From: Thermoproteota archaeon
GTDB lineage: Archaea > Asgardarchaeota > Jordiarchaeia > Jordiarchaeales > Freyrarchaeaceae
NCBI GenBank assembly: GCA_029258835.1
Contig: JAPDJY010000025.1
Span: 1-62,775 of the forward strand
Length of the DNA stretch: 62,775 bases
Direction: 5' to 3'
Under the pieces are notes generated by a model. It was not told the DNA's origin and did not search any database. It worked only from the letters and a program-made list of their open reading frames with translations. The position numbers and the translations under genes are program-made. Below are positions 4,840 through 39,415 of the stretch, one piece after another (within the stretch, counting starts at the first letter, position 1; the number at the start of each line of letters is the position of its first letter).

Positions 4840-6390
4840 TTAAGGTAATGGAGTAACGATGTAATCTGGCGGGTATGAGACTGTAAACTTATAGTTTATT
4901 TCCAGCTGACCTCCGGGATTTAGGGTTCGCTCCCACTTAATGACTCCTACTCCAGACTTCTCGTCTGGAGACGGGTTCGAAGAGACCAGTTCAACGGAGA
5001 TTTCAGGGTCCCGAGCGACAGGTATTCTATCGTAGATAACCAGTTTAGCTTCATTTTCCAAGTGGTTCTTGACGGAGAGGAAGTAGCCGTAGGTTACATG
5101 CGCCCTACCTTTAACCACGCCCTTCTTCTCCTCCTCTCTAAGTATCATTTTACGCTCGCACTCAAGCCTTTCCTCCCAAGCTATAGGAAGCTCAAACTCT
5201 TGGTTTGGGGCGACATACGGAATGCTGGTGGTGCCTACCAGCATCCCGTTCTTAAACATCCTGCAAGTTCCAGGGCTAAGCGGAACCTCCCCATTCCTTA
5301 TTTTAACTACTTCGACGAAGTCTGAATGCTGGTAGGCGTCCCATACATAGTAGGTTTCAGCCTCAACATCGAAGCGTTTAAGAAGTATCATTGTTGGCCT
5401 CCCGGGGAAGAAAGAGCCCTTAGAGGATACTTTAAACGCGAGTGCGCCGGCTGACATAAGGTCAGCTTCCTGGAAGGCTGGTTCTAAGGCTTCCTCCATC
5501 TCTTCACCTAACGTCTCCTCAGCCATTTCCTCGGTCATAACCGCCATTTTCGGCGCTCGGGTGGGAGGGATGAAGGATGGTGCACCCGGTTTAATAGCGT
5601 TGATGAACCATGGTGCTGGCTCAGGTTTCGTAGCGGTGCGAATAATCTTGCCTGATACTGTTACGGGAACGTCTTCCCAAGACACTCCTGTAGATTGTAC
5701 TACTTGAGCGTACACGGCTATTTCAGCTTGTCCCTCCAGTAACACGTCATATACGGGAGACCAGCCAACGTTTGACGCTTCATACTGTAGTATGAAGTCA
5801 TACGTGTCTGCCCGCTCACAGATTAGATCGAGTTCGATTGCTCCTAGTTCTACGGCTTTCTTGTCGATTCCTTCAAGAAGTACTTCAATGCGCTTTATCT
5901 CGTCATTTAGAGAGGATAGCTCGCGCTCCCGCTCTATTATTTCAAAAACCTTCTTTTTCCTTATTTCCGAGATTGCTTCTAGAACTTCGTTGAGGTGTTG
6001 CTTTGAGGCTTCCCCTACAAGACCAGCGGTGACAAACGCCTCAGCTGCTTTGCTTAAAGCCTTGTCGAACGATTCAATCAGCTTTTTCGATTCTTCAATT
6101 TCGCTTTCAAGCGTTTTAACTTTCTCCTTCAACTCCCTTAACTCTCTGAGAAGGAGTTCCTTTTCGGATACAGCCTTATCTATCCCCACCACGGTTGTTT
6201 TCAAATCAGCTCCGGTTACCGTCACGCCTTTCCTAGAGAAAATCCTTATCGACCCTGGAATTATTGTTTTTTCAAGCCCTTCAACGAGGATCGTTGATGA
6301 GCCTTCCTTAAGTTCGGCTGAGAATGTGCGTCTTAAGGTGGCAAGATTTCTGAAAATTTTAACTTCTTCTATCTTGGCGAGAACACTCAT
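4840..6390 (-). CDS. DUF4140/DUF4139 (MuiA-like) protein
   Basis: N-terminal IEEVKIF..A...R, coiled coil, GWSPVYD, VQSTGVSWEDV, DRIPV, C-terminal beta domain. Confidence 0.85.
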   Translation of the reverse strand: MSVLAKIEEVKIFRNLATLRRTFSAELKEGSSTILVEGLEKTIIPGSIRIFSRKGVTVTGADLKTTVVGIDKAVSEKELLLRELRELKEKVKTLESEIEESKKLIESFDKALSKAAEAFVTAGLVGEASKQHLNEVLEAISEIRKKKVFEIIERERELSSLNDEIKRIEVLLEGIDKKAVELGAIELDLICERADTYDFILQYEASNVGWSPVYDVLLEGQAEIAVYAQVVQSTGVSWEDVPVTVSGKIIRTATKPEPAPWFINAIKPGAPSFIPPTRAPKMAVMTEEMAEETLGEEMEEALEPAFQEADLMSAGALAFKVSSKGSFFPGRPTMILLKRFDVEAETYYVWDAYQHSDFVEVVKIRNGEVPLSPGTCRMFKNGMLVGTTSIPYVAPNQEFELPIAWEERLECERKMILREEEKKGVVKGRAHVTYGYFLSVKNHLENEAKLVIYDRIPVARDPEISVELVSSNPSPDEKSGVGVIKWERTLNPGGQLEINYKFTVSYPPDYIVTPLP

Positions 6391-6662: not shown

Positions 6663-8132
6663 ATGTTAGAGTTCATGGATAAAGAGAATGGAGCGTATTA
6701 TAAGTTTTACATCGTTGATGGGCATCACCATTTAGGAGCCGACGTAGACGGGCAAAGTAACCGGAACCCCGCTGCCCCCGGAGGAACGTTTGACTTTTGC
6801 TTCAAGATAACCAGCCAGCTCTTAAGAATACTTGCTGATGGGAAAGTAGACTTGAAAGCTGAGCCACATGGCTTCTTAAAAGAGATTCTCGAACAGGAAG
6901 ACAAGTGGAAGGACGTGCTTAACGGAACTTGGGCTGTAGATAAGACGGTTGTCTTCCCGTTTAACGACGAGTTCAGGTGGAGAGAAGGAGACGAGGGGAA
7001 AGCAACTTACTGGAGGTCAAATGATAACATTCACAGATGGACTGCGCGCGCCCCTTACTCCTTTAAGCTCACAGGGTATGCGCGTATAGTTCCGCATGAG
7101 GGGGACGTGGCTGTCAGGGAGCTTCACAGGGCGGTAGAGGAGCTCGGTCTCAGAGGATTAAAGCTCCATCCTAGATCTGACGGATGGGGAGGGGAGATCA
7201 ACACGGATCCTGTAGAAAGAGTTCTTGTTGAAGCTGCTAAGCTAGGTATTCCTGTGATCTTTGATACGAGAGGGTTTAACCAGGTGGTTGACATAGCGGA
7301 GGTAACCGTTAAGGCGAAGCTGAGGCTGGCAAACATCGATAAGAGGCTTGCGAAGAGGCTTAAGGTAATACTCGCCCATGTAGGGTTTCACGTGGGTCAT
7401 GATGAGCTTTTCTCCATCCTAAGTCACCCTAATATTTACGGTGAAACTTCAGGGGTTCACGACGCGGGGATAAGACGGCTTTTTGAGGAGGCCTCTGTAA
7501 GGCTAAGCGAAAACTTAGGACCATACCGTAGATGGTCGGAAAAGTTAATATTTGGGACGGATTTCCCATATTTCGACGTGCCACATGCAGTACAGTTCAT
7601 CTCCTACGTCCTTAGCGAAGATTTCCCTGGAACCTTCGAGGACGCACAGCGTATTCTGGGAGTTAACGTGCTACGCTTAATACCTCCAAAACTGGAGAGG
7701 GCACCCTTTAAACTTGAGGCGGTTCATTTTAGAAGGGAGCTGGCCCCCATGGTTAAAAGGAAAATAGCCTTAGAACTAGCTAATCTAGCATCTAATAAAA
7801 AATGTGATGTAACCTCTTTTGACCCTTTCCTCCAGCCTCCGCCGAGGGCGAACGTTAGAGAAGACTGCGTCATCTCCATTAGGAGCATGAACGGAGACGA
7901 TAAGAAAGCTTCACTCATGTTTTTCACAATACGTGGGATAGGAGTTATAGCACGGTTAGACTCTGAGTTAACCAGCCTAGACACATTATTAAGAAGAGAG
8001 TTAGCGTACGATGATTCACCATTAAGGCAAAGGTTTTACAATAAGCTCTGGCCCAGCAAGGTAGAGCGCGAACAGGCGCAAATTGAAGAGAAAATAAGGA
8101 GCATTTTGAAGCCACTCTTTGAGAAATCCTAA
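6663..8132 (+). CDS. Amidohydrolase (Amidohydro_2 TIM barrel) with an extra C-terminal domain
   Basis: IVDGHHH, GLKLHP, ILAHVG, FGTDFP motifs; ~150 aa unassigned C-terminus. Confidence 0.85.
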   Translation: MLEFMDKENGAYYKFYIVDGHHHLGADVDGQSNRNPAAPGGTFDFCFKITSQLLRILADGKVDLKAEPHGFLKEILEQEDKWKDVLNGTWAVDKTVVFPFNDEFRWREGDEGKATYWRSNDNIHRWTARAPYSFKLTGYARIVPHEGDVAVRELHRAVEELGLRGLKLHPRSDGWGGEINTDPVERVLVEAAKLGIPVIFDTRGFNQVVDIAEVTVKAKLRLANIDKRLAKRLKVILAHVGFHVGHDELFSILSHPNIYGETSGVHDAGIRRLFEEASVRLSENLGPYRRWSEKLIFGTDFPYFDVPHAVQFISYVLSEDFPGTFEDAQRILGVNVLRLIPPKLERAPFKLEAVHFRRELAPMVKRKIALELANLASNKKCDVTSFDPFLQPPPRANVREDCVISIRSMNGDDKKASLMFFTIRGIGVIARLDSELTSLDTLLRRELAYDDSPLRQRFYNKLWPSKVEREQAQIEEKIRSILKPLFEKS

Positions 8133-8271
8133 AGATGAAGAAGGAGAGAAGGAAAACATTCCATTCTCAAAAGAATTTAAGAAATTATATATGTCAGTTT
8201 TCTCTAAAATTCTTTAGTAAATTATGCTTTAAGACCTAAATGTTGCAATTGACTTTTAGGAGGACTCCTTA

Positions 8272-9738
8272 ATGCCGGATAAAGGTGCCGAGGAGCAAAA
8301 GGAGAAGGAGGTTAAGCCCCTGAAGGCTGTTAAGAAAACTGTTAAGAAAAAGAGAGCGGAGGCCGCTGAGGAGAAAGCCGTCGAGGAAAAGAAGGGGGAA
8401 GAGGAGGAAGTCATCGAGAGAATGTTTAAAGAAGCAGAGGAAGCTAAGGAGGAGAAGTCTCCTAAAAAGCAGTTTAAAGTTGTTGTTAAGGAGGGATTAT
8501 CAGGATACATATCTCTTAATGAGAAGGATGCCTCAGAGTTGCAGATTCTTGAAGGGTCAATAGTGGAGTTTGAGGACCCACTCTCGGGGGCGGGGGGTGT
8601 AGCCCTTGCCCACCTAGACAAAGATGTTTCTCCAGGAACCGCTGTCATGGAGCCTGCCCTTAGCGAGGCATGCGGCATCGATGAGGGCTTCGAGGTGAAC
8701 ATTGGCAAGTTTGAGGGAACACCACAGAAGATAACTAAGATAGTCTTTGGGGTGGAGCCGCTAGAGGGGGGAGCCGAGGAGGCTATAAGGAGGGTTCTGG
8801 ACGCTAAAGACGAATTCCAAAATTGGCTTGATGGGAGGGTTATATTCAAAGATTGGGTTTTGAAGTTTCCTAAGCTAAACGTTAACGTTTATGTCGTTTC
8901 TACGGAGCCTCCATTAACTGGAAGGCAGGTTGGAATAATAAACTTCGCTGAGATAAAAAGCTATGAAGTCAAACCTTGGAGGGCGGCTGTTCCATTCAAT
9001 GCAATCCTGTTAATAGACGTGTCAAGAAGCATGCTGACGGAGGACATGAAGGTTACGAACATAGCTCCAGCGATCGAAGCCATAAAAACGATAGGAGGGG
9101 AAATCCCTGAAATTAAGGAGTTCTTGGAGCAGTTCCGAGAGGGGAAAAACGTCAAAAGAGTTGCTGGAGCCGTGTTTGCAGCGCTACTTTACCTGGTGGA
9201 GAAGGTTGGGCGCGGTTACGGAGAGAGAGTGGCAATAATAACTTATAGTGAGACAGCTGAGCCCATAACGTTCCTCATGACAGGAGGGGTGAAGCTTCCA
9301 TACTTCCATCCTGGGAAGAGCAAGATGGCGGGGGTCTCGCAGCTTGGAAGGCTCATAATCGACAGGCTTAACAGGGTTTCCAGCAGCCACACCAATATGT
9401 CTGAGGCGCTCATGGAAGCATTAAAGCTAATAGAAACGTGGGAAAAGGAGGAGCCTGAGGGGAAAAGGCTACCTAACATGATCGTGCTGTTAAGTGACGG
9501 TTTCCCAGACATTTGGGGAGATGAAGGGCCACCCGTCCAAGTTGTTCACGACCACTTCTCAAAGAGAAGTGACGTAGTAATATATACTGTTGGAATTGGA
9601 GGGGAAGTGCAGGAAAGGATAATGGAGGCAATAGCAACTAAAGGACATGGAATTTACTATAAGGCTGAAGACTTGGGAGACCTGCTAAACTGGTATCAAA
9701 AATTAGCAAGGGACCTCGTCATCCGGCTAGAAGCTTAA
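8272..9738 (+). CDS. CDC48 N-domain-like + von Willebrand A domain protein
   Basis: E/K-rich N-tail; double-psi-barrel-like halves (ISLNEKDASELQILEGSIVEF; VMEPALSEACGIDEGFEVNI); CDC48_2-like (LDGRVI...VYVVSTEP); vWA MIDAS DVSRS, HTNM, LLSDG, IYTVGIG. Confidence 0.75.
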   Translation: MPDKGAEEQKEKEVKPLKAVKKTVKKKRAEAAEEKAVEEKKGEEEEVIERMFKEAEEAKEEKSPKKQFKVVVKEGLSGYISLNEKDASELQILEGSIVEFEDPLSGAGGVALAHLDKDVSPGTAVMEPALSEACGIDEGFEVNIGKFEGTPQKITKIVFGVEPLEGGAEEAIRRVLDAKDEFQNWLDGRVIFKDWVLKFPKLNVNVYVVSTEPPLTGRQVGIINFAEIKSYEVKPWRAAVPFNAILLIDVSRSMLTEDMKVTNIAPAIEAIKTIGGEIPEIKEFLEQFREGKNVKRVAGAVFAALLYLVEKVGRGYGERVAIITYSETAEPITFLMTGGVKLPYFHPGKSKMAGVSQLGRLIIDRLNRVSSSHTNMSEALMEALKLIETWEKEEPEGKRLPNMIVLLSDGFPDIWGDEGPPVQVVHDHFSKRSDVVIYTVGIGGEVQERIMEAIATKGHGIYYKAEDLGDLLNWYQKLARDLVIRLEA

Positions 9739-9869
9739 CTGTCAGGCTTCAACCCCACATTTCCCATTCAGGGGATAATGGCTAATGTTATTGTAACGTG
9801 TAAATGGAGGCTAAAAGTCCCAGAGGCATTTTTTGAAGGCTGGAAACCCCACCACTCTTTCCATGATTT

Positions 9870-12800
9870 TTAGGATGGGGTAAACGTCACGGTTATTAGG
9901 GAGTTTTGAACTAGCTTGTTGGGTATCTCCTTAAGCTGCCCTTTCACTTTTTCAAAGAAGATCATTCCCAGGTAATAGGATTCAGGCTGCTTAGGTTTAT
10001 GTACTTCCCATATGATTGGCTCATACGTTAGCCTCACTATGTTTCCCTTTATGAGCGTTGTTTCAACCGTTTTCCGCAGAATAACTTTTTTAGCTTTCTT
10101 TTCAAACACGGCGAAAACAGCCCTAACAGGTAGATTGTAGTCGGCAAAGCTTTGAACGGAGGGGGAAAGCTTCAACTCTAGTTTATCGCCTTCCATCTGG
10201 ATGTATTCTGACAAGGGCGGAGTGCTGATGTATGCCACTCTTATAAGAGGCTTAACTGCTTCGACAAGAAGCCGCCTTTCAGTAGTCCAGCCGGACGCAC
10301 CATTCCTTTTAATTTCAAGCTTAACCGCGCACTCCTTGTCAACAGCGAATAGAGGTACTTTTATGGGTATTCTTGCGAGAACCTTGTCCTTTGGAGCTAT
10401 TTCTATGGGTATTACACCGTCTAATACTGTAAAGTCGTCCACAGCCTCACGGTATGCGAGTTCAAAGCTGAGGGTGGAATCCGTTAGGTTCTCTATCTGG
10501 ATGATTATGTCGTGGAGAGAGCCGGGGGGAAGGGAAGGAGGAAGCTCGTGAACTATTACGCTTATAGCCTCCCTTAAGTCCAGCACGTTGACTTGAATGG
10601 AGTCCTCAGCTATTTTCTTAGAGTCTTTAATTATTGCAGCTGTTAAAAGAATGGATTTAACACCGCTTGGAACCGGTATTGGAGGAACATCTATTGACGA
10701 CTCAGTCACGGGATCTGACAGTTCCATTGTGGCAACCGTTTCAGACCCGGATGCGGTTATGCTCTCTATTACGAGTGAGCATGGAGTTAGGGAGCTGCTT
10801 AAACCGCTTATCGACAACTTTCCCCTAATCGTAGATCCTGAAAGAGAACTTTTAGGAACCTCAGACCACTTTAAGCTTACTTCTGGGCCTCTAACAACTT
10901 TAAACTTGGCAGGTGCCTCGACAAGGTTAACTAGCTCGCCGTCGTGTAAGACTTCAACCGTGAGGTAAAAGACGCCTTCACCGGCTCCCTTACCTAAGAT
11001 GTCCCTTGGAATAGTCCATTTAACCGGCATTGTCGTTGAAACTCCTGGTTTGACCGAGGCCTCAAAAATCTTTCTTTCAAATGTTTCGTCTGAAGGAGAC
11101 TTGATCTTCACTACCACCTTCACTGGTGAGGGGGATAGGAGGTCGCTTGCATCGACCATTAAAGACGTCTCCAATGTTTCCCCTACGTTATAAGTGGACT
11201 TTGGTTTCTGCCCGACTTCAACGGAGACCATGGCTCCTTGGAAGAACACTCTGAAGTCCCTAGACCAGCTTTCAGATATCACGTGGCCACTTGAATCTAG
11301 AAGCTGGGCTCTTATAGCACACCGTGGACTGATCCAAGAGCTGTAAAGCCAAGGCTTTAACACTAGCGGGTCTATTTCAACCCAGCTTCCTTCGGTTTGC
11401 CCTTCTAGCACGGCTTTAGCCCAGTCAAGCTTCGCTATCTCCTCCGACATGGCGACGAAAAGGGCGTGATCCTTCGCCCTTATAGGTTTAAGGTAGACGC
11501 CCCACGGCTTTAGATCACTCAGCACTGAGTCTAGTTCGCGTCCCTGGTCCTTGTCGACAACGGATATTTTGAGTGTTAAATACATGTCTTGGGGGGTGGT
11601 GTTCTCGACTGCTACTATAAAGGGAATCTCTGTTTCTCCAGTAACGATTACGCCGTCAACTTGGGCTATGAGGTCTGTCTTGCAAACAACCCTATATACA
11701 GGGATTGCGAGCTTTTCCACCGCGACGAGCTCGGAGGACACTGTTAGCTTGGCGCTGAGAGTATACTGAGGTACGCCTGCCTCGGTGTCAAACTCTATTT
11801 CGCCATAACGCCTCTCACCGGGTTCCAGCGTTTCAAGGGTAAAGAGCTCTTCCAATACTTCTTCCCCGGCGTGATCAATGACTACACAGCTAAGGTTGAG
11901 ATCTCTGAGGGGTTCTTCGCCCTTGTTCTCCACGAATATTTTACATGTTACCGATTGTCCCTCGAAAACGATGGATGGTTCAAACGATAATTCGAGGGAA
12001 ACCGGGACGGCTACTAGCTCCTGAAGGTTTGGAATGCCAGAGAGAGGGTCGCTCCAGACATTGCTGCATGTTTGGTCAGCTATTATCTGCAATTCTCTCG
12101 AGAGACTTTCTATGCTTTCCCCAAGCTCGAAGTACTTCTCCAGTTGATAGTCAGCCGTAGTCATGGGCGGGATAATTTTGCCAGACATGTCCCCATAGAC
12201 GCTAACCAACAACGGGTTGAGGAACTCAGACTTTAGAATGCCAAGTTCTTCGAGTTCCTCCTTCAAGAAGAAGAACATGTTTTTTACCGCGTCTACTATG
12301 CGTTTAACAGGTTCTTTCCCTCCCAGCCTGCAATCAAAAAAGTAGAATGCCGCGAAGTTAGGGTGCTTCCTAGCGAACTCGTCAAGATTCCTAGGCTTAA
12401 AGAAGGGGCCTGTTAACCCCCACCTGATCGCTGAACGTCTATTCTTGATGAGCGTTTCAGAGTCTACTTCGGGAATTAATTCCCCACTATCATGAAGCTT
12501 CTTGGCCTTAAGGGCTAATGCTTGGAGCAGTGCTGCGAGAGCCACCTTACGGATCACACTAATTTGAGAGTCAAAAACTCTAATTTCAACCGTGTTAAAG
12601 CGTGTAAAAGGGTACATATCACACATTCTGGCGGGAGTACGGCCAACAACCCTTTCAAAGAAAGATTCGTCCAAGGAGGTAAGATGTGGAATGTAGTGTT
12701 GGGGATCGTCAGGTCCGAGTTGTCGGGCGTTAAGTTGGAGTCGGATGCTTCTAATGCAACCCGGAGCCTGAAGCCTTCCATCCTTCATTGTGACGATGTC

Positions 12801-13427
12801 TGTTGGCCGTCCGGCTACGAAGGGAGAGTTGACGGAGAGAGCTACTAAGTGTGGTATGAATGCTCGGATGAGGTTATAGACGGATAGCCTGTAGCCTGGG
12901 TCAGGGACGCCGATATGGTGGTGGTCGCCGAAGCTTAAACCTTGCTGGTACTCCATCAGGGGGTTTAGCCCGGTCGTTATGAATTTGACTCCTGCAGGCA
13001 GCGAGTCGTGGGAAAGTTTGAGTATAGTGTGCATCCACCAAGCAAGCTCTTCAAGCGTAGTGCAGGGCGGTGTGGCGGCCTCAAGGATCCACGTGATCGT
13101 TCCAATATGGGGGTCGCGTCCAAGAATTTCGATGTCAACTTGTTCGCCGTTAGATAGCGTGTACGTTACTATTAGGGTGTCACCCCTTCTTTCTACGGGT
13201 GCGATCCTTATGTTAGAGGTTTTCTTGCTGATCATTTCCGTGAGCTCATCCTGTGGGTCCCTGAGAATCCCTTTAAGACCTTCCGCTACATCCTGAACTA
13301 TTTTTCCCATAATGCTGACCATTTTCTCTCCATCAATCCAACGGCCTTTCAAGTTTACGATCTGGATTTCAGATTCTATGCCATGCGTGAACGGTAGCTT
13401 GGTTAGCGTACTTGCCAACTTCACCAC
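9870..13427 (-). CDS. Carboxylate-amine ligase (GCS2/YbdK family) fused to multiple Ig-like beta-sandwich domains
   Basis: THGIESEIQIV, ILEAATPPC, GDHHHIGVPD, LVALSVNSPF, TVEIRVFD; C-terminal CARDB-like repeats (VENKGEEP..LEPGE; VENTTPQ; IENLTDS..IAPKD). Confidence 0.8.
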   Translation of the reverse strand: MVKLASTLTKLPFTHGIESEIQIVNLKGRWIDGEKMVSIMGKIVQDVAEGLKGILRDPQDELTEMISKKTSNIRIAPVERRGDTLIVTYTLSNGEQVDIEILGRDPHIGTITWILEAATPPCTTLEELAWWMHTILKLSHDSLPAGVKFITTGLNPLMEYQQGLSFGDHHHIGVPDPGYRLSVYNLIRAFIPHLVALSVNSPFVAGRPTDIVTMKDGRLQAPGCIRSIRLQLNARQLGPDDPQHYIPHLTSLDESFFERVVGRTPARMCDMYPFTRFNTVEIRVFDSQISVIRKVALAALLQALALKAKKLHDSGELIPEVDSETLIKNRRSAIRWGLTGPFFKPRNLDEFARKHPNFAAFYFFDCRLGGKEPVKRIVDAVKNMFFFLKEELEELGILKSEFLNPLLVSVYGDMSGKIIPPMTTADYQLEKYFELGESIESLSRELQIIADQTCSNVWSDPLSGIPNLQELVAVPVSLELSFEPSIVFEGQSVTCKIFVENKGEEPLRDLNLSCVVIDHAGEEVLEELFTLETLEPGERRYGEIEFDTEAGVPQYTLSAKLTVSSELVAVEKLAIPVYRVVCKTDLIAQVDGVIVTGETEIPFIVAVENTTPQDMYLTLKISVVDKDQGRELDSVLSDLKPWGVYLKPIRAKDHALFVAMSEEIAKLDWAKAVLEGQTEGSWVEIDPLVLKPWLYSSWISPRCAIRAQLLDSSGHVISESWSRDFRVFFQGAMVSVEVGQKPKSTYNVGETLETSLMVDASDLLSPSPVKVVVKIKSPSDETFERKIFEASVKPGVSTTMPVKWTIPRDILGKGAGEGVFYLTVEVLHDGELVNLVEAPAKFKVVRGPEVSLKWSEVPKSSLSGSTIRGKLSISGLSSSLTPCSLVIESITASGSETVATMELSDPVTESSIDVPPIPVPSGVKSILLTAAIIKDSKKIAEDSIQVNVLDLREAISVIVHELPPSLPPGSLHDIIIQIENLTDSTLSFELAYREAVDDFTVLDGVIPIEIAPKDKVLARIPIKVPLFAVDKECAVKLEIKRNGASGWTTERRLLVEAVKPLIRVAYISTPPLSEYIQMEGDKLELKLSPSVQSFADYNLPVRAVFAVFEKKAKKVILRKTVETTLIKGNIVRLTYEPIIWEVHKPKQPESYYLGMIFFEKVKGQLKEIPNKLVQNSLITVTFTPS

Positions 13428-14164
13428 CCTGCTATTCTCCTAGCGGCTTCCGTCAGAATTTGGAATATATTCTTCACAGCACCGTTATCAAGAAGGCTCT
13501 CAGATAGGCTTACATCTAGGAGGGATTTTTTACCTTTCTTTGCAAGCATGTGAAGGCAGTATACTACTGGTCCTCCGCCGAATGTTTCGTTATCTAAGGA
13601 TATACTTACGTTCTTGATGGAATCCTTTAGGGACGGGATTATTCCATGCTTATCTAAAGAAAATGAGTCGTTAATTATTAAGAGGTTTTTTTCCGTTGGA
13701 AGATCTTTAAAGCTCCTAAGAACTACGATGATCGCTTCAGAGTTGCTTCTCCCTAAAGGAGTGGTAGAAATTATCTTCACCACTTTTTCTCCTGTTTCGA
13801 TTCTTCCCTCAGCGTCGGGAAGAACCAAATAGTAGAATGGATTTCCGGATTTCCTCGCCTCATCAAATAATTTTTTTATTGTTTTTGAGAGAGGAGAAAG
13901 ATCTTCTGGTTGGGTTGATATGACCATGAGGGGGATGAAGCGTTCACCTTCCTTAGGGGTTGAAAAGCGACCTTTCTCCCTTAAATCCTCGAGGTATCTT
14001 AGCAGTAGCTTATCAAAGGAGGTGGCAATGAGCATGTAAAGGTCACTATACTCTGCAGCAATAGTAACAGCTAACGAGAGGCTTTTTTCAAGGTCACCTA
14101 GTAGAGAGGTGAGGGTGGAGGCAACTGAATCGACATGCTTAATTAATTCAATTACTTTTTCCAT
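13421..14164 (-). CDS. Hypothetical protein, possibly a degenerate N-formylglutamate amidohydrolase-like fold
   Basis: NETFGGG and LLDVSLSESL resemble the FGase NxPFxGG and xQxExxxxL segments; overlaps the ligase start. Confidence 0.45.
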   Translation of the reverse strand: MEKVIELIKHVDSVASTLTSLLGDLEKSLSLAVTIAAEYSDLYMLIATSFDKLLLRYLEDLREKGRFSTPKEGERFIPLMVISTQPEDLSPLSKTIKKLFDEARKSGNPFYYLVLPDAEGRIETGEKVVKIISTTPLGRSNSEAIIVVLRSFKDLPTEKNLLIINDSFSLDKHGIIPSLKDSIKNVSISLDNETFGGGPVVYCLHMLAKKGKKSLLDVSLSESLLDNGAVKNIFQILTEAARRIAGW

Positions 14165-14173
14165 GCTCTCCTC

Positions 14174-15343
14174 CTACTTTGACAAGTCTTCAATCGACCT
14201 TAAGAGCTCGCTTCGTTGCCGTCTTAACTCATGCAACTTCTCGGAGAACTCACCCATAAGTTCCCTTACCCTGCTTATGGACTCGTCTATCATCTTTACT
14301 TTTTCGTTTAAGTTACTCATCATCTCACCTAAACCTGTCAGGGATGATACAGACGACAACTTTGCCTCTAAAGAACTAACCCTATCCTCCAAAAGGCTAA
14401 ATTTATGCTTAAGATCTTCAAGTATCACTTTCAACTCTGAAACATCCTGCGGAGGGTAGAATTGCTGATGGGCTTCTGCCTTCTCGGAGCTGGCTTCAGC
14501 GGTCATTTCAGCCTTTAACGCAGCTTCTTTTGTGAAACCCAGCTGGGCTTCTACAATCCCCGTCACTTCGGGCTTTACGAGGCCGCTCGTATAACAGTCA
14601 TAAACCTCCGCTAAGGTCTCCGATATTTCCCTAGCATAAGATTCTCCCCCGAACCCGGAGAAAACACACGAGATCTTATCATGATACCGCATCCCCCATA
14701 CCCCTCTGCTCCCCTTCTGGTCTAAGAAGAGCATTAGGGATGAGGCAAAGGAAGGGCTCTCGAAAAGATTCTGCAAGGTTCTAATTATAAGGTTTAAATC
14801 TTTTGGCAGCACTCCTCCCTCTTCAAAGTCGTTACGCACCCAGATGTACTCAAGATTATTCTCTCCAAAAAGCCTTCGCAACCATTTTTCTAAGCCATCG
14901 ATGAAAATGCGCGTCCCGCTAAACTCGTAGGTTCTCTCGCCGAAGTTTAATATGGAAAGCAGGTTTGCCACGATCATTTTTGACTCTTTCTCGCGGGTCT
15001 TGAAGACACATACCCACTTCTCTTTTCCGTAGCCAACACCACAAACTCTACTCTCCCCAGACTCTAACACCGTTATCGCTATCATGTTGTTTCGTAAAAG
15101 GGGGTTAAGGATGACCTCATTGGAAAAAACTTCGAGGAGAAGCTGAGAGGTTCTAACAGTTTCAGGGTTGAGGACTACGCCTTTAACGTGTTTAAAAAGG
15201 GATTTTGCAACTTTGCCACTTTTAAGAGTTTTAACGGCTTCGCCGATGACGTTTAAGTCTACGAAGAAGTATCCGCTGATCACACCGGCAGTAAAACCAT
15301 ACCATTTATCAAGCCACTGCCTGAGAACTTCACCATACTTCAA
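14174..15343 (-). CDS. Hypothetical protein with C-terminal coiled coil
   Basis: Long ORF; TTG at 15343 follows GGGAGGG; heptads in the last ~90 aa. Confidence 0.7.
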   Translation of the reverse strand: MKYGEVLRQWLDKWYGFTAGVISGYFFVDLNVIGEAVKTLKSGKVAKSLFKHVKGVVLNPETVRTSQLLLEVFSNEVILNPLLRNNMIAITVLESGESRVCGVGYGKEKWVCVFKTREKESKMIVANLLSILNFGERTYEFSGTRIFIDGLEKWLRRLFGENNLEYIWVRNDFEEGGVLPKDLNLIIRTLQNLFESPSFASSLMLFLDQKGSRGVWGMRYHDKISCVFSGFGGESYAREISETLAEVYDCYTSGLVKPEVTGIVEAQLGFTKEAALKAEMTAEASSEKAEAHQQFYPPQDVSELKVILEDLKHKFSLLEDRVSSLEAKLSSVSSLTGLGEMMSNLNEKVKMIDESISRVRELMGEFSEKLHELRRQRSELLRSIEDLSK

Positions 15344-15587
15344 CCGATTCCCTCCCCTGAAAGCCAGCATTCACTAAATGTAGAATTTTAAGTTCAAATC
15401 AAATATAAGACTTGAAAGAAAGTTTTAATAATCATTTCCATAGTCTCGTTTCATTTTTTCGTTCCTTTTTTAACGTCCTGCAGGTAGGTTTGCAAGAGAG
15501 AGCTAAGAGAGGAAAAAGGGGAAGTGTGTTGTTCAATGACACCATTAATGAGTGGCCTTAATTTTTGTTAGAACTTACTTCTCAAGT

Positions 15588-15788
15588 TCAGCTTGGAGGG
15601 GCTTTCTTGGCTTTTTCTTCCACGTGTTTCTCAAGCGCGCTAGCAGCTTCTTGCATCATCTTTGCTCGTTCTTCCTTGGTTTTAGCTAAGGCTTCCTGCT
15701 CTTCTTTTCTTCGTTCCTCGTGGAGCTTCTCGAGTAACTCTTTAGCTTTCTTCACCTCTTCAGGTGATGGCGGAGCTTCTTCGCCCAT
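15588..15788 (-). CDS. Small Glu/Lys-rich helical protein (66 aa)
   Basis: ATG at 15788 after GAGGTGG; E/K/A-rich helix flanked by APPS at both ends. Confidence 0.65.
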   Translation of the reverse strand: MGEEAPPSPEEVKKAKELLEKLHEERRKEEQEALAKTKEERAKMMQEAASALEKHVEEKAKKAPPS

Positions 15789-16099
15789 TAAACCACCTCT
15801 CTCCTCCAGGGAGTTCATCATAAAGTAAATAGTTCACAAACACATTTATCTATTTTTTGGGAGAAAAATAAAGAAGCACCTAAAAAGTTGAAATGATTGC
15901 ACTTCAAAGGTAGAAAATACTTAACAATGAGATGATAAGCGTTTTCATAAAATTGTTAAAGAAATAATAGAAGAAGTTTAACAAAGCATTTTTAAAAACA
16001 AACTAACATTATGTTGCTATGATTTTAAAACCATCTTTAAGACATGCTTGGGAGTCTGCCACCCTTTGATGAAGGAAGTTGATTGGAAAGGGGTTCTAG

Positions 16100-16861
16100 G
16101 TGGTCACTGTGGCCATAAAAACACGTGGTCTAACTAAGTTTTACGGTTCAACTCTCGGAGTGAAAGACTTAAATTTAGAGGTTTCAAGCGGTGAGACGTT
16201 TGGCTTCCTTGGCCCTAACGGTTCAGGGAAAACAACGACTGTTAGGCTGCTAAACTGTATAATTAAGCCTACTAGCGGAACAGCCAAGGTTGGGGGATAC
16301 GACATCGTAAGTGAGCCTGAGAAGGTTAAGAGGATAACCGGGCTCCTACCCGAGACGCCAGGAGTTTACGAGAAGCTTTCGGCGAGAGAGTTCTTAGAGT
16401 TTATAGGTGGCTTATATGGCGTTCCAGAGGACACGTTGAAGAGGAGGATAGACGAACTGCTCGAGTTTTTCGAGATAGAAGACAGGGGAGACGAGTTGCT
16501 TGAGGGGTTTAGTAAGGGTATGAGGCAGAAGGTCCTACTCGCATCGGCTCTCATCCATGATCCAGAAATAGTTTTTCTAGATGAGCCCACCAGCGGTTTA
16601 GACCCTTTCTCGTCCAAGATGGTGAAGGACCTCGTAAAAACATTATCATCAGAGACAAATAAGACGTTCTTTATATGTACGCATATTCTCCCCCTCGCCG
16701 AGGAAGTATGCGGGAGGATAGGGATAATTGATAGGGGCGAACTTAAGGAGGTTGGGACGCCTGAAGGGTTAATGGAGAAGTATGGGGCAGGAAACTTAGA
16801 GGAGGTTTTCCTCCAAGTTACGGGGAGGAGGGTAACGAGGGATATGCTTGAGTTGGTGTGA
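16100..16861 (+). CDS. ABC transporter ATP-binding subunit (ABC-2 type)
   Basis: GPNGSGKTT, FSKGMRQK, FLDEPTSGLD. Confidence 0.95.
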   Translation: MVTVAIKTRGLTKFYGSTLGVKDLNLEVSSGETFGFLGPNGSGKTTTVRLLNCIIKPTSGTAKVGGYDIVSEPEKVKRITGLLPETPGVYEKLSAREFLEFIGGLYGVPEDTLKRRIDELLEFFEIEDRGDELLEGFSKGMRQKVLLASALIHDPEIVFLDEPTSGLDPFSSKMVKDLVKTLSSETNKTFFICTHILPLAEEVCGRIGIIDRGELKEVGTPEGLMEKYGAGNLEEVFLQVTGRRVTRDMLELV

Positions 16862-18635
16862 AAAATTGCCCTTATGGTATATTATAGCGAGAAACGAGTA
16901 CAGGCTTATGACTTCTGGTAAAGTGTTAAGGAGGTTACGGCCGGTTATACCAGTGGCACTCATCTCTGGTATAATTATATTAGCGGCTGTAATGTTGCTT
17001 GTGTCTAAGAACTTTTTTGTCTCAAGGTTGAATAACTACTTTAAGGAAGTTGTAATGATGCCTATGCTTGCATCAACATCGATCTTCCTTCAAGATTCGG
17101 TGTATGTTTTAAACATGGGATCTATGGCTGGGGCGGTCGCCTTCATGATACCCATATTTGCAGCAATAGGACGGCAATTGCAGGAGGCGGAGGTCGTAAG
17201 CAGAGACGTGATACTCGCAAGCCCCCTTAAAGCCCGCCACGTCCTTCTCGGCGACTTTATAGTAAATCTGATTATAGTTCCTGCGGTTCTGATAATAGCA
17301 TCCTTCATGATGATTCCAGCTGCGATCACTTTTTACTTGACACCTCAAGCCATAGCGTTGATATTTGCCTCTATTGCTATTGCGAACCTTTCAGGAATAT
17401 GGATAGGAGTCATGATTTCATCATACCTTTACATTAGAGAAACCACCGAGCGTATGAAAACTCTTTTTAAAACGTTGCTGGGTGTAGCTGGCGTTGCTAT
17501 GGGTATAGGGTTTTTCTTCTTGTCATCGTCTACTATGCCCTTAAACCTGTGGTTTCTACCGTCAACTTGGGTGGGGAATGTCGTGCACTTTGCAGTAACC
17601 CAAAGCAACATTGCAATAGCAAAGATAAATTACCTTTATATCGCGTTTCCAGTTTACCCTGACGGGTGGACAAGCCTAGCGCTCCTAGTAATGTTCACCT
17701 TCCTAGTGGTCTTAGCTGGAGTAGCCTACGCTAGCAAGGTGAGCTTCATAGAGACAGGAGGAGAGGAAGTAACAGTCATGGTTAAGGGGGAGAACTGGTT
17801 TTACAGGGCTATTAGGAAAATCACGCCCACACCCCTTAACATCATGCTAGTATCCCAGCTTAAGGAGTTCACCAGAAGAATGGATAACATAGCACGGGTA
17901 GCCACAGTCCTAGTATTTCCCGCTATAATATTCCTTATGAGAGGGACCATGCAAACTAACGTCTTCCAAGGAGATGCTGGATGGATTAGCTTCTTCTCCT
18001 CATTTACTGGCGTGTACATTATGTATATTATGATGGCTGGCGTCTTGCTTCCAATAATGATAGTTCCATACACTTTTGTAAGAAATAAAGACGTGCTTTG
18101 GACTATTAAGAAGACGCCTGCCGGCGTGAAGCTTATGGTTCACGCCATGTTCCTCGAGGCATTGATTTTAAGCACCCCCCTAGCAGTGATCTCGGCGGTA
18201 ATGTTCTACTTAGCCTTAGGAGGGGTGACGGGAAACCCTGCAACAGTTCTAGCTACAATGCTCTTTCTGGTCGCTGTGAGCTCGGCCATAACCGTTGGAG
18301 TTTACGCTTGGAGGCCTGTTTTCCAAGAGAGGGAAATAGGACACCTCATCAACTTTTTAATCACGATGATTTTAACCGGGATAACTACAGGGGTGATGCT
18401 AATTTTATCCGTAGTCCCGTGGGTACTTAACCTGATACCCTCAATGACTGTGCTTAATGGCATCCCTTGGCTTCCCCCTTCAGCCTCGATAGTGTTGGCG
18501 TTCATGTTAGTCCACTTGGAACCCGTAAGCGTCCCTGTGAGAATTGCTGGGATCGCAGTGTCTCTAATTGTGGGAGGGGTAGCAGCATACCTGGCACTTA
18601 AAAAGGGAGTAGAAAAGCTTGAAGCGTACGAGTAA
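16848..18635 (+). CDS. ABC-2 type exporter permease (duplicated membrane domain)
   Basis: Many TM segments; two halves beginning IARNEYR and SQLKEFTR; overlaps the ATPase gene. Confidence 0.8.
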   Translation: MSWCEKLPLWYIIARNEYRLMTSGKVLRRLRPVIPVALISGIIILAAVMLLVSKNFFVSRLNNYFKEVVMMPMLASTSIFLQDSVYVLNMGSMAGAVAFMIPIFAAIGRQLQEAEVVSRDVILASPLKARHVLLGDFIVNLIIVPAVLIIASFMMIPAAITFYLTPQAIALIFASIAIANLSGIWIGVMISSYLYIRETTERMKTLFKTLLGVAGVAMGIGFFFLSSSTMPLNLWFLPSTWVGNVVHFAVTQSNIAIAKINYLYIAFPVYPDGWTSLALLVMFTFLVVLAGVAYASKVSFIETGGEEVTVMVKGENWFYRAIRKITPTPLNIMLVSQLKEFTRRMDNIARVATVLVFPAIIFLMRGTMQTNVFQGDAGWISFFSSFTGVYIMYIMMAGVLLPIMIVPYTFVRNKDVLWTIKKTPAGVKLMVHAMFLEALILSTPLAVISAVMFYLALGGVTGNPATVLATMLFLVAVSSAITVGVYAWRPVFQEREIGHLINFLITMILTGITTGVMLILSVVPWVLNLIPSMTVLNGIPWLPPSASIVLAFMLVHLEPVSVPVRIAGIAVSLIVGGVAAYLALKKGVEKLEAYE

Positions 18636-34274: not shown

Positions 34275-34613
34275 TTGATTCGGATTAGCAGACGGCCTAG
34301 CAGGAAGGACGTCAAGAAGATAGCTATCAGCAGAATGAAAAGGCTTATGGAGCTTGCAGAGAAGGTGTTCTCAGAAGATCAAGAGCTGGCGCAGAGGTAT
34401 GTTGAGCTGGCTAGAGCAATTGGGGCTAAAGCGAACGTGAGGTTTCCGAAGTGGCTACGTAGGAGGATATGCCGGCACTGTGGGGCATACCTGTGGCCAG
34501 GAGTTAGCTGCAGGGTGCGTCTCAGAATCAACAGGAGCCCACATGTAACAGTCACATGCCTCAAATGTAAAAGGCAAATGAGATATTACTATAAAGTTAG
34601 AAAGGAAGGTTAG
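34275..34613 (+). CDS. rnp4: RNase P protein component 4 (Rpp21)
   Basis: IAxxRMxxL, RYVELA, ICRHC...CLKC..RY. Confidence 0.93.
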   Translation: MIRISRRPSRKDVKKIAISRMKRLMELAEKVFSEDQELAQRYVELARAIGAKANVRFPKWLRRRICRHCGAYLWPGVSCRVRLRINRSPHVTVTCLKCKRQMRYYYKVRKEG

Positions 34614-34722
34614 ATAAGGAATTTTGATTAGGTGGCTTCCCCGTTTACATCTAGCAAAATTTATATTAGTTTGAGGTATTTGTCTCCCCACCAAAGCTGG
34701 GAAGTTTCGAGGAGGATTTTGA

Positions 34723-35181
34723 ATGGTGAGTGCTTACGACGTGCCGGCATGGGACCTGATAAGGGAGGTAGCTAAAATACTTAAGGAGGAGTATCCATCT
34801 GTGAGCCCGCCTCCAGGATATCAGTTCTGGAAAACAGGAGTTCATAAGGAGGTTCCACCGGAGCAGGCAGACTGGTGGTACATAAGGTGTGCTTCGATAC
34901 TCCGAAAACTGTACGTTCACGGCCCTGTCGGCGTATCACGTCTCAGAACGGCTTACGGAGGTAGGAAGAGGAGGGGAGTTAGACCTGAACACTTCGCGAA
35001 GGGTAGCGGATCCATCATTAGGCGGGCGCTTCAGCAGTTAGAGGAAGCAGGATTGGTTGAGAAGGTTGAAAAGGAAGGGAGAAGGATAACGAATAAAGGG
35101 CGGTCTCTTCTAGATAGAACAGCATATAAGATAAGTTTAAAGCTTAGAAAGGAGATCCCTGAAATTAAGAGCTATCTTTAA
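34723..35181 (+). CDS. rps19e: 30S ribosomal protein S19e
   Basis: KTGVHKE, DWWYIRCASILRK, YGGRKRRG. Confidence 0.97.
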   Translation: MVSAYDVPAWDLIREVAKILKEEYPSVSPPPGYQFWKTGVHKEVPPEQADWWYIRCASILRKLYVHGPVGVSRLRTAYGGRKRRGVRPEHFAKGSGSIIRRALQQLEEAGLVEKVEKEGRRITNKGRSLLDRTAYKISLKLRKEIPEIKSYL

Positions 35182-35271
35182 TTAGGATCCATGTTTGCAT
35201 TAATGTTCGATTAATGAGCGGCTTGCCACATTTCTATTAGGGCCGTTAAGGCGTTAACTGGGTGGTTTACG

Positions 35272-35601
35272 TTGTCCGAGGAGGAGCTTGAGGAGATAAG
35301 AAGAAGGAGAATGCTTGAGCTTCAAAGGCAGATTGCTGAGGCGCAAAGGCAGGAGGAGATCAGGCGGGAAATGGAGGCTCAAAAGCAGGCTGCTCTCAGG
35401 CAGATTCTAACCCCTGAGGCAAGGGAGAGGTTAGCAAACTTGAAAATGGTTAGGCCGGCTTTCGCGGAGCAGTTGGAAGCCCAGCTTATTCAGCTTGCTC
35501 AGAGCGGGAGGGTTAAGCTGCCCATAACAGATGACATGTTAAAGAGGATCTTGCTTCAGCTTCAGGGTTCCAGGAGGGAAACAAGGGTTAAGTTCAGGTG
35601 A
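35272..35601 (+). CDS. PDCD5/TFAR19-like DNA-binding protein
   Basis: [29 protein letters not shown]. Confidence 0.93.
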
Positions 35602-35606
35602 TCCTG

Positions 35607-35762
35607 ATGGCTAGAGTTAAACCTTTAGGAAAAAAGTTGAGGCTTGCCAAGGCTAATAAGCAAAATTCTAGCGTTCCAGCATGGGTGATAGTTAAAACAG
35701 CTGGACGTGTAAGGACAAACCCTAAAAGGCGTCATTGGAGGTCAAGTAGGATTAAACCGTAA
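35607..35762 (+). CDS. rpl39e: 50S ribosomal protein L39e (absent from the ORF track)
   Basis: Translated by hand: [31 protein letters not shown]...[13 protein letters not shown]. Confidence 0.95.
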
Positions 35763-35774
35763 AGACGTTGACGG

Positions 35775-36140
35775 GTGGACAGGAAGATGAGCGGGGAAGA
35801 AGCCAAAGTTGAAGGAGTGGAAGAGGAGAAGGGAGAAGAGGGAAAGGTTGAGGAGGAGCGAGAGGTCCCGCTGGTTGAAGAGGAGGAGAAGGAAAGCAGA
35901 ATCTACACTGTACCCTTAAAGAAGGCTTACTACGTTCCTAGGTACAAGAGGGCTAAGAAGGCTGTTAAGATCCTGCGAGAGTTTATTAGAAGGCACATGA
36001 AAGCTGAAAGGGTTATTATTTCCCAGCGTCTCAATGAGAAGATATGGAGTAGGGGGATAGAGAAGCCGCCTAGAAGGGTTAAGGTTAAGGCTGTCAAAAG
36101 CGAGGAAGGCGTTGTCGAAGTAGATCTCGCATCAGAGTAG
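35775..36140 (+). CDS. rpl31e: 50S ribosomal protein L31e (acidic N-terminal extension)
   Basis: RIYTVPL, KRAKKAVK, NEKIWSRGIEKPPRRVKV. Confidence 0.95.
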   Translation: MDRKMSGEEAKVEGVEEEKGEEGKVEEEREVPLVEEEEKESRIYTVPLKKAYYVPRYKRAKKAVKILREFIRRHMKAERVIISQRLNEKIWSRGIEKPPRRVKVKAVKSEEGVVEVDLASE

Positions 36141-36154
36141 GCGAGGGACGTCTT

Positions 36155-36823
36155 TTGGCCGTCACGCGTATAAGATACAAGGGCACTTCTAACATAGGCG
36201 TCTTTATTCTGGCGACGGAGAAATATGCTCTGGTTCCGCCTGACGCTCCAGATAAGGTTTTAAATGTTTTAAAGGAAACCTTAGAGGTCGAAGTGGTTAA
36301 GGCATCCATTGGTGAAAGCAGTATTGTTGGGGTTCTAGCTGCAGGCAACTCTGAGGGTGTTGTGGTGCCATACTACACTTTAGATGAAGAAATAGAGAGG
36401 TTAAGGAAGACCCTACAGGTTGAGGTCGCTAGGGTTCCAGGCAAGATAACGGCTCTCGGCAATGTTGTGCTGGCCAGCGACGATGCAGCTGTCGTCAGCC
36501 CAGAGCTAACAGAGGAAGCTGTTAGCGTGATCGAGGACGCTTTAAACGTTAACGTGCGGAAAGGTACTGTGGCTCGTCTCCCCATAGTTGGGTCTTCGGC
36601 TGTGGCGACAACTAAAGGCGTTCTGGTTCATCCTCAGTCGACCGGAAAGGAGATAATGCTTCTCGAAGAGGTTTTTGGGGTTTCAGTTGACGTTGGAACC
36701 GTTAACAGCGGTATGCCCTATGTTGGTATAGGAATGGTTGCCAACTCCGTTGGGGCTGTAGTGGGCGAGGACACTACAGGACCAGAGATTCAGAACATAA
36801 TAAGTATTTTAGATGTTGCGTGA
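36155..36823 (+). CDS. eif6: Translation initiation factor 6
   Basis: NIGVF, ALGNVVLA, GTVNSG, TTGPE. Confidence 0.95.
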   Translation: MAVTRIRYKGTSNIGVFILATEKYALVPPDAPDKVLNVLKETLEVEVVKASIGESSIVGVLAAGNSEGVVVPYYTLDEEIERLRKTLQVEVARVPGKITALGNVVLASDDAAVVSPELTEEAVSVIEDALNVNVRKGTVARLPIVGSSAVATTKGVLVHPQSTGKEIMLLEEVFGVSVDVGTVNSGMPYVGIGMVANSVGAVVGEDTTGPEIQNIISILDVA

Positions 36824-36838
36824 AACGGGGGTGGCAAC

Positions 36839-37087
36839 GTGAGTTCAGACGGCGAAGTTAGGGTTTTTAGGATTGAAGGTTACTACATTAAAAAGAAGAG
36901 GAAAATATTCTTTAGCGAGGAGGTTCGGGGGTTACGTGAGGAGGATGCGTTAGAGCTAGTTTACTCGAATCTAGGTAGTAGGCATCGTGTTAAGAGGAGA
37001 GAGATTAAAGTAGAACGGGTAAATGTTATTAATCCCGAGGAAGCTAAGAAGGTGATTGTTAGACTTCTCTCCGGATTGGAGACGTGA
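36839..37087 (+). CDS. rplX: 50S ribosomal protein LX/L18Ae
   Basis: VFRIEG, YSNLGSRHRVKR. Confidence 0.93.
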   Translation: MSSDGEVRVFRIEGYYIKKKRKIFFSEEVRGLREEDALELVYSNLGSRHRVKRREIKVERVNVINPEEAKKVIVRLLSGLET

Positions 37088-37530
37088 AGAAAATGTCGGA
37101 AAACGAGCAGAAGTTTAGGTTGGCGTTAAGCCAGCTTAACGCCTACGAGCAACAGGCACAGGTGCTTGAGGGGCGCATAGAAGCCATCAACCAAATGATG
37201 GAAGAGATAGCTAGGGCTAGCGCAGCCCTAGACGAACTTAAGAACATGGTGCCTGACCAAGAGATCCTAGTCTCCTTGGGAGCAGGCACGTTCTTAAAGG
37301 CGAGGGTTGCTGAAAGGGAAAGGGTTGTGTTTCAGGTTGGAGCAGGGGTTGTGATAGAGAAAAGCGTTGATGAGGTTAAAGCTAAGCTGAGTGAGAGGCA
37401 GGGAGAGTTGCAGAAGAGCCTTCAGACTACCGCGCAGCAGCTAGATGCAATAGTAAGGAGGGCGAGGGAGCTTAACAGGCAAGTGCAGGATTTAGCCGCG
37501 AAAATAAGCGAGGAGAGAGGGCTTAGGTAA
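37084..37530 (+). CDS. pfdA: Prefoldin subunit alpha
   Basis: ILVSLGAG...VGAGVVIEK flanked by coiled coils. Confidence 0.93.
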   Translation: MKKMSENEQKFRLALSQLNAYEQQAQVLEGRIEAINQMMEEIARASAALDELKNMVPDQEILVSLGAGTFLKARVAERERVVFQVGAGVVIEKSVDEVKAKLSERQGELQKSLQTTAQQLDAIVRRARELNRQVQDLAAKISEERGLR

Positions 37531-37564
37531 AAGGGTTACATCCTTTGGGAAAAGGCGATGCCAA

Positions 37565-38467: not shown

Positions 38468-38488
38468 CGATTTAGCAAGGGAGACGGG

Positions 38489-39406: not shown

Positions 39407-39415
39407 CAGTGAGGG

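Follow-up and report, generated by a model that had tools for sequence, protein, structure and literature searches.

Which bond is formed, and on what kind of substrate, when an Asgard archaeon encodes a giant carboxylate-amine ligase next to a metal-dependent hydrolase and a von Willebrand factor A (vWA) protein? This question is raised by a six-gene region (positions 6663-15788) of contig JAPDJY010000025.1 from a Thermoproteota archaeon belonging to the Asgard archaea (Jordarchaeia); the window is the whole stretch of 62,775 nt that was analysed. An earlier note had read the region as a candidate peptide-ligation (tag/untag) system, and the six-gene layout that it described was reproduced in full, with all six open reading frames (ORFs) where it had placed them. 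In the ORF list and translations, a plus-strand pair, consisting of a 489-aa metal-dependent hydrolase of the Amidohydro_2 family that is extended by ~140 aa at its C-terminus (AH, 6663-8132) and a 488-aa protein of Cdc48_N-type and vWA composition (VWA, 8272-9738), converges on a minus-strand string of a 66-aa K/E-rich helical protein (P4, 15588-15788; 77 aa if the start is at 15821), a 398-aa accessory protein (P3, 14174-15370), a 247-aa ligase partner (P2, 13421-14164) and the 1185-aa ligase itself (LIG, 9870-13427, GTG start). P3 and P2 are spaced by 9 bp (14165-14173), and the end of P2 overlaps the GTG start of LIG by 7 nt (13421-13427). Comparison with other Asgard genomes showed that LIG, P2, AH and VWA constitute one conserved, vertically inherited module, limited to part of the Asgard archaea.

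Gene maps were drawn for 47 loci and phyletic counts were made over 400 Asgard genomes. A related-locus search with a single protein gave only three loci, all from close Jordarchaeia. The arrangement in the window, with AH and VWA converging on P2 and LIG, is that of the Jordarchaeia and of family f3, and it is kept in Jordarchaeia relatives with 51-72% ligase identity, in which the flanks are different. The Thor-like loci have P2 and LIG in one direction, then ~8 other genes, then VWA and AH in the opposite direction, the two parts lying 6-8 kb apart in 17 of 20 loci. In the short-form arrangement (Loki, Hel, Hod and Heimdall-named genomes), a P2-domain protein is followed by a LIG of ~550 aa and by AH, with LIG and AH directly adjacent in 7 of 14 loci and within ~5.5 kb of each other in four more. 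The gene immediately upstream of the giant ligase is P2 in all six distinct Jordarchaeia loci and in 16 of the 20 Thor-like loci. The phyletic counts gave LIG in 252 and an AH ortholog (E ≤ 1e-25) in 249 of the 400 genomes, both being present in families f1-3, f11, f13, f15-21, f30 and f31 and both missing from families f4-10, f12, f14 and f22-29, while a VWA ortholog was detected in all five tested LIG carriers and in none of five tested near-complete non-carriers. Linkage and co-occurrence in other genomes, on which the proposal had been made to depend beforehand, were thus found for four of the six genes: the conserved set stands for LIG, P2, AH and VWA and falls for P3 (Jordarchaeia only) and P4 (one family). 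No AAA or proteasome gene was seen as a conserved neighbour in the mapped loci, which leaves the suggested connection to AAA or proteasome machinery unsupported.

The set also occurs twice in the same genome. On contig C2 (L031:7752-14373, also L031:14472-15992), AH2 (476 aa) and VWA2 (441 aa) stand in convergent orientation to LIG2 (1228 aa), upstream of which a 506-aa protein stands in place of P2 and P3. Trees of LIG (IQ-TREE) and of AH and VWA (FastTree) recovered four clades in common (Jord1, Jord2, Thor-like and short-form), mostly with support of 99-100, the exceptions being that the Thor-like group has 90/85 for LIG and does not form a single clade for AH or for VWA, and that the short-form group is a single row in the VWA tree. 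The recurrence of the same clades in three trees indicates that the set was duplicated long ago and that each ligase retained its own partners. Adjacency by inherited synteny among related genomes, with no functional linkage, would be another explanation, and it draws on the kinship of many of the compared genomes and on the ~8 unrelated genes that part the two halves of the Thor loci. This is highly improbable, given that three arrangements (convergent, operonic and 6-8 kb apart) were met in deeply diverged clades (~30-40% identity) whose flanks differ, that the phyletic patterns of LIG and AH are identical, that the set was duplicated together, and that AH and vWA are also found fused.

Residues ~1-470 of LIG form a YbdK/GCS2-type ATP-dependent carboxylate-amine ligase domain, followed by a repeat tail (~480-1185). 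PF04107 matched LIG with 30.9 bits (cut-off 21 bits), and TIGR02050 matched with an E value of 2.7e-24 and 86 bits, under its subfamily cut-off of 176 bits. E. coli YbdK (1r8g, E 1.9e-9) aligns to LIG across three catalytic blocks, and the YbdK structures 1r8g and 1tt4 are the only solved relatives in the PDB, even when the family profile is used. The metal/ATP motifs (GxExE, a central E, HxH and ExRxxD) are kept and align to those of YbdK. Given that the GCS2 catalytic residues (G16, E18, E20, E116, N155, H169/H171, R188, R226/R229, E281, R283 and D286) are invariant across 19 sequences from four deep clades, LIG is almost certainly an active enzyme, as judged from these alignments. With the family match and all GCS2 catalytic motifs present, the earlier assignment of the ligase to the GCS2/YbdK type is upheld; its likening to the Pup ligase PafA is not, the nearest sequence relatives being YbdK enzymes and not PafA/Dop. 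One position departs from YbdK throughout: the 'WDIRP' arginine of YbdK, which is presumably involved in substrate binding, is replaced by F, Y or W in 19/19 Asgard ligases, so that the site reads D-[VLMI]-[FYW]-P and not WDxRP.

The source annotation, 'glutamate-cysteine ligase family', points to a simpler role for LIG, that of a plain gamma-glutamylcysteine ligase for a low-molecular-weight thiol, as in haloarchaea, with neighbours unrelated to it. The genome-wide GCS2 scan is compatible with this insofar as it gave two copies, LIG and LIG2 (29.6 and 50 bits), and no other GCS2 gene, and weak matches to NCBIfam glutamate-cysteine ligase models were obtained (E 1e-8 to 1e-16). All of these matches fall far under the cut-offs, however, the best of the equivalogs PRK13515-13518 reaching 77.7 bits against 371 and the others 33-65 bits against 360-437 (e.g. 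58.8 against 409 bits). Beyond the LIG clade, moreover, scores drop sharply to those of ordinary YbdK/GshA proteins (E 1e-33 to 1e-13); the two giant paralogues each possess their own AH and VWA, and a thiol synthase is not expected to co-occur with AH/VWA. A role as plain thiol ligase is thus very unlikely. The earlier remark that a glutathione-type context is lacking is supported, the only two GCS2 genes of the genome being LIG and its giant paralogue.

The tail of LIG (480-1185) consists of ~7 tandem repeats of ~100 aa that are similar to one another (hhalign probability up to 92%), with a column identity of 0.21-0.38, compared to 0.46-0.68 in the catalytic domain. Weak Ig-type (immunoglobulin-type) matches were obtained in the tail (Transglut_C, E 0.0037; CARDB/NPCBM_assoc look-alikes at 0.90), and precomputed Ig-type Pfam entries are present on LIG homologues, suggesting that the repeats may be beta-rich and Ig-like. 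Homologues of this giant type (1140-1190 aa) occur in Jordarchaeia with 51-72% identity and in many Thorarchaeota with 29-33% identity. Short-form ligases of ~550-620 aa, which comprise the ligase domain alone, are found in Promethearchaeota/Loki, Hel, Hod, Sigyn and Heimdallarchaeaceae.

The gene that overlaps LIG had been described as FGase-like and as a possible eraser of the bond, and the combination of GCS2 with FGase is said to have its origin in the amidoligase study of Iyer et al. in 2009. In an AlphaFold2 model of P2 (24 homologues, pLDDT 91), residues 2-63 make up an N-terminal helix of ~60 residues, and residues 75-245 an alpha/beta domain that resembles the FGase/PghP/pyroglutamyl-peptidase fold. 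The top Foldseek ranks for this model are the poly-gamma-glutamate hydrolases PghP/YndL (E 2e-4), and structural Atlas matches include FGase and Gamma_PGA_hydro clusters, as well as a cluster of 620-aa Promethearchaeota proteins. The FGase likeness of P2 therefore holds at the level of the modelled fold and not of the sequence: none of the 24 P2-family members matched PF05013 (FGase) at E ≤ 10, and Pfam scans of all 24 gave noise only. The only positions with at least 90% conservation in the 24 sequences are D191, G196, G197 and G198, and no conserved His, Glu or Cys of a metal-binding or catalytic kind was found among them. With catalytic residues absent and only D191 and the GGG turn conserved, P2 is not a plausible eraser; it is probably a non-catalytic member of the FGase/PghP fold. 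A P2-like domain is found at the C-terminal end of the ~600-aa protein encoded upstream of the short ligases (hhalign probability 89%). A complex prediction of LIG(1-480) with P2 returned a score of 0.00, which gives no verdict and counts as evidence in neither direction.

AH matched PF04909 with 56.8 bits (E 3.9e-15; cut-off 26.4 bits), and its metal site (D19-H21-H23, K167/H169, H239 and D300) is invariant in the 20-36 sequences aligned. From the chemistry of the family, AH is predicted to be catalytically active as a metal hydrolase. The AH clade is distant from the solved structures: the family profile matched none of them in the PDB at E ≤ 1e-3, and the best PDB matches of AH are LigW-type decarboxylases (E 1.4e-4). 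In VWA, a K/E-rich N-terminus (1-65) is followed by a Cdc48_N-type double-psi barrel region (~65-235) and then by the vWA domain (VWA, E 2.5e-9; VWA_2 also matched), in which the metal ion-dependent adhesion site (MIDAS) is complete, with D249, S251, S253 and D409 invariant and T324 at least 90% conserved. CDC48_N (PF02359) matched 7 of 22 VWA homologues (best E 1.9e-9). The same match is not significant in the window's own protein, where Molydop_binding, another double-psi barrel, gave E 0.054; the N-terminal region is accordingly called a predicted Cdc48_N-type barrel on the strength of those seven homologues. The best PDB match of VWA, a weak one, is to the vWA2 protein 5a8j (E 0.0033).

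Thor genomes and Jordarchaeia also encode proteins of ~850-900 aa in which an AH-like part is fused to a double-psi barrel-vWA-like part in the same order as in the separate genes (C12:18417-20957 in the window's genome; L006:552-3095; L015:17062-19683). The fusions lack the metal ligands and the MIDAS, and they are predicted to be a pseudoenzyme paralogue of the AH:VWA pair. In Thor genomes the fusion adjoins AH-VWA, in close relatives it lies ~5 kb from P4, and in the window's genome it is on another contig. Such a dead fusion is an argument for AH and VWA acting as a physical pair.

The two remaining genes of the region are lineage-specific accessories and not part of the core, since P3 was found in Jordarchaeia only and P4 in a single family. 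The N-terminal domain of P3 (9-143) is probably, though tentatively, Roadblock/LC7-like; another globular region follows, and residues 305-398 form a coiled coil at the C-terminus. An ESM Atlas feature search with P3 gave no usable match, and comparison by hhalign (probabilities 0.2-30%) revealed no homology of P3 to the Thor 146-aa protein described below or to the N-terminal stretch of the ~600-aa protein of the short-form loci, and none that was clear to the 506-aa protein upstream of LIG2. P4 is a real gene, its variable sites among five relatives being distributed 20/18/62 over codon positions 1/2/3. Its homologues are confined to the window's own family (L005, L006, L007, L029 and L030), and no Pfam family matched it above threshold. 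As a Pup-like tag P4 was ruled out by this one-family distribution and by its C-terminus, which reads ..KKAPPS(S/G/A) with no terminal Glu, Gln or Gly-Gly, and the proposal that the small E/K protein is the tag or substrate is not supported, for the same reasons. An 87-aa plus-strand ORF (15565-15828) overlaps P4 on the opposite strand and is probably spurious, because the substitution bias favours the minus-strand frame of P4.

Other lineages have other genes at this place. A strongly conserved helical protein of 142-148 aa with no Pfam family, present at L010:1763-2203 and at 19 other Thor-like loci, sits between Opp-type ATP-binding cassette (ABC) ATPases and P2-LIG, and is directly upstream of LIG where P2 is absent (L017, L020 and L025). 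This Thor 146-aa protein was also considered as a tag and rejected, since neither an acidic nor a Gly-Gly ending is conserved in it. In families f30 and f3 of the Asgard archaea (L008:3-2306 and L023:17693-19999), a 767-aa protein with a C-terminal EAP30/Vps36-family domain of the endosomal sorting complex ESCRT-II (E 1.7e-19) lies immediately upstream of P2-LIG, and the 506-aa protein beside LIG2 shares a region of ~125 aa with it (hhalign probability 87.5%). In 12 of the 14 short-form loci, an undecaprenyl-diphosphate-synthase-type cis-prenyltransferase is encoded upstream of the operon of P2-domain protein, LIG and AH (e.g. L037:13349-14074; PF01255, E 1.7e-57).

Towards its flanks, the window carries a MuiA/DUF4139-DUF4140 protein (4840-6390, minus strand; TIGR02231, E 7e-59) adjoining AH. 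This neighbour is kept with 51% identity in one close relative (L006/L030) and not in more distant Jordarchaeia. On the other side (16100-18635, plus strand), the gene of a DrrA-like ABC ATPase (253 aa) runs into the start of that for a 595-aa protein, which has no Pfam match and is presumably the permease; in the Thor-like loci Opp-type ABC ATPases lie upstream of the ligase instead. A housekeeping block (34275-40318, plus strand) encodes RNase P Rpr2, ribosomal S19e, a dsDNA-binding protein, L31e, eIF6 and L18Ae, together with prefoldin alpha, an FtsY/SRP54-type GTPase, an aspartate/ornithine carbamoyltransferase and an EamA transporter, which indicates that the module is located in the core chromosome and not on an island. 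This bears on the idea of a vWA-containing conflict or defence system on a mobile, variable island, for which one could cite the vWA proteins known from several conflict systems and the diversification suggested by the dead paralogue and the lineage-specific accessories. A defence role is extremely unlikely, as PADLOC returned coiled-coil noise only (with P3), each genome holds one to two copies, the trees follow taxonomy, and synteny is conserved amid housekeeping surroundings.

In two metatranscriptome runs from one marine-sediment sample, 11 short contigs with 97-100% identity touch all six genes, one of them spanning the P2/P3 junction; at a depth of 2-5 these contigs are weak evidence and no proof of transcription, and the uncovered parts are uninformative. 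One contig (11490-12178) joins non-adjacent and reordered pieces of the repeat tail, e.g. 11832 to 12071, and is probably an assembly artefact arising from the internal repeats.

On what, then, does the module act? From the chemistry of its family, LIG would use ATP to convert a carboxylate into an acyl-phosphate and then join it to an amine, and AH would hydrolyse the substrate or product of LIG, that is, the same molecule. We tentatively favour a ligase/hydrolase module directed at macromolecules (protein or peptide), while holding it short of established. The partners are protein-binding modules (Cdc48_N, vWA MIDAS and the ~7 Ig-like repeats), the variable upstream accessories are Roadblock-like or carry ESCRT-II EAP30, genes of small-molecule pathways are not conserved with the pair across lineages, the YbdK active-site Arg is replaced in the ligase, and all six proteins appear to be soluble, each of which leans towards a macromolecular substrate. 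The solubility follows from the finding of no transmembrane-like segment in any of the six, and the module is accordingly predicted to be cytosolic. A vWA MIDAS typically binds an acidic side chain. In the proposed working, the Cdc48N barrel and the vWA MIDAS would recruit the protein or peptide substrate, the Ig-like arm of the giant ligase would position it, P2, as a non-catalytic subunit, would bind a Glu-like or peptide moiety and present it to LIG, and AH in complex with VWA would remove or process the modification. The writer, eraser and reader roles given in the earlier note, and its Glu-isopeptide (gamma-Glu-Lys) bond, are hypothetical, so that its reading of the region is supported in part.

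The foremost competitor is small-molecule amide metabolism, in which LIG would join a small carboxylate (e.g. glutamate) to a small amine and AH would process the compound or its precursor, either in a gamma-glutamylation/deglutamylation-type cycle or in the synthesis of an amide-linked metabolite, with VWA, P2 and the Ig arm only scaffolding or regulating. Such a pathway agrees with the nearest relatives of LIG, which are the small-molecule ligases of the YbdK/GCS2 group, with the tight two-gene LIG-AH operon of the short-form lineages, and with the core ligase domain that many lineages possess without an Ig arm; Amidohydro_2 enzymes act mostly on small molecules, and LigW-type decarboxylases are the best PDB matches of AH. 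It fits less well with the replaced substrate-side Arg, with conserved partners that are protein-interaction modules, and with the dead AH-vWA fusion paralogue, and the mapped loci contained no transporter or further small-molecule pathway enzyme conserved with LIG-AH across lineages. We regard small-molecule amide metabolism as a real alternative, somewhat less probable than the macromolecular reading.

Several observations weigh against a macromolecule-directed module. As far as is known, small molecules are the substrates of every characterised close relative of LIG (YbdK/GCS2) and of most Amidohydro_2 enzymes, and no Pfam, NCBIfam or PDB match of LIG to PafA/Dop (Pup_ligase family) was obtained with the single sequence or the profile. 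The short-form ligases are without the Ig arm, which implies that the arm is not essential to the core function. P2 is absent directly upstream of LIG in 4 of the 20 Thor-like loci and beside LIG2, and VWA is loosely linked in the short-form genomes, lying 10-22 kb off or on another contig. No conserved small ORF that could be a tag or precursor was seen beside LIG in other lineages, though no exhaustive small-ORF search was made. Finally, the synteny shared inside Thor or inside family f20 may in large part be due to relatedness and not to selection. The most specific form of the macromolecular reading is correspondingly a speculative one, which we consider unlikely as a whole: a reversible ATP-dependent protein modification with no relation to ubiquitin or Pup, present in the Jord-, Thor-, Loki-, Hel-, Hod- and some Heimdall-type lineages of the Asgard archaea, in which the YbdK-type ligase would write an amide (isopeptide or C-terminal) bond, the complex of Cdc48N-vWA protein and amidohydrolase would recognise and remove it, and the Roadblock-like or ESCRT-II-like accessories would tie it to eukaryote-like regulatory machinery.

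The individual parts have known counterparts, from which the set as a whole differs. The YbdK/GCS2 ligases (PF04107; E. coli 1r8g and Salmonella 1tt4) share their fold and the motifs GxExE, E, HxH and ExRxxD with the N-terminal ~470 aa of LIG, but the LIG domain is ~100 aa longer, has lost the WDIRP Arg, carries a repeat tail of ~700 aa or a tail of ~90 aa, and belongs to an Asgard-only clade behind a large score gap, with AH, VWA and P2 as obligate partners. The Pup system of actinobacteria (PafA, Dop and Pup) is alike in possible working only, by its combination of a ligase of the glutamine-synthetase/GCS superfamily with a hydrolase that reverses the bond. A sequence relation to PafA/Dop was not detected, the amidohydrolase TIM barrel of AH is an unrelated fold, and neither a Pup-like tag gene nor a proteasome/AAA neighbour was seen at the mapped loci. 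Compared to FGase (PF05013), PghP/YndL (PF05908) and pyroglutamyl peptidase I, P2 has no sequence match, no metal His/Glu or catalytic Cys, and an additional N-terminal helix of 60 residues. VWA resembles the Cdc48/p97 N-domain and vWA adaptors (Rpn10-type; archaeal ArnB 5a8j) by its Cdc48_N-type barrel and complete MIDAS, but it lacks an AAA ATPase domain and is paired or fused with an amidohydrolase. In the gamma-glutamylation/deglutamylation cycles of PuuA/PuuD and EgtA/EgtC, a ligase and a hydrolase for one amide bond are likewise co-encoded; the hydrolases there are of the glutamine-amidotransferase or Ntn type and stand alongside more pathway enzymes, whereas the Asgard loci have protein-binding modules as partners and no conserved pathway enzymes of this kind around them. 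The set thus resembles Pup/PafA/Dop or gamma-glutamylation cycles in its possible working and belongs to neither.

A literature search for an Asgard carboxylate-amine (COOH-NH2) ligase or GCS2 protein together with amidohydrolase and von Willebrand found no description, and LIG-P2-AH-VWA is an undescribed enzyme system, with a new ligase clade, a new architecture and a new set of partners. Among known organisms, none is more closely related to eukaryotes than the Asgard archaea, and, to our knowledge, no function has been assigned to most of the proteins specific to their lineages. The module, with four components and intact predicted catalytic sites, is present in ~60% of the sampled Asgard genomes, and its wide retention, the duplication of the set and the dead fused paralogue point to a strongly selected, undescribed function. 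Direct in vitro testing is feasible for the LIG domain of ~470 aa, which is predicted to be soluble, and for the hydrolase. If the substrate proved to be a protein, the module would be a third ligase-based protein-modification system of prokaryotes beside the ubiquitin-like and Pup systems; if it proved to be a small molecule, the module would define a so far undescribed Asgard metabolite.

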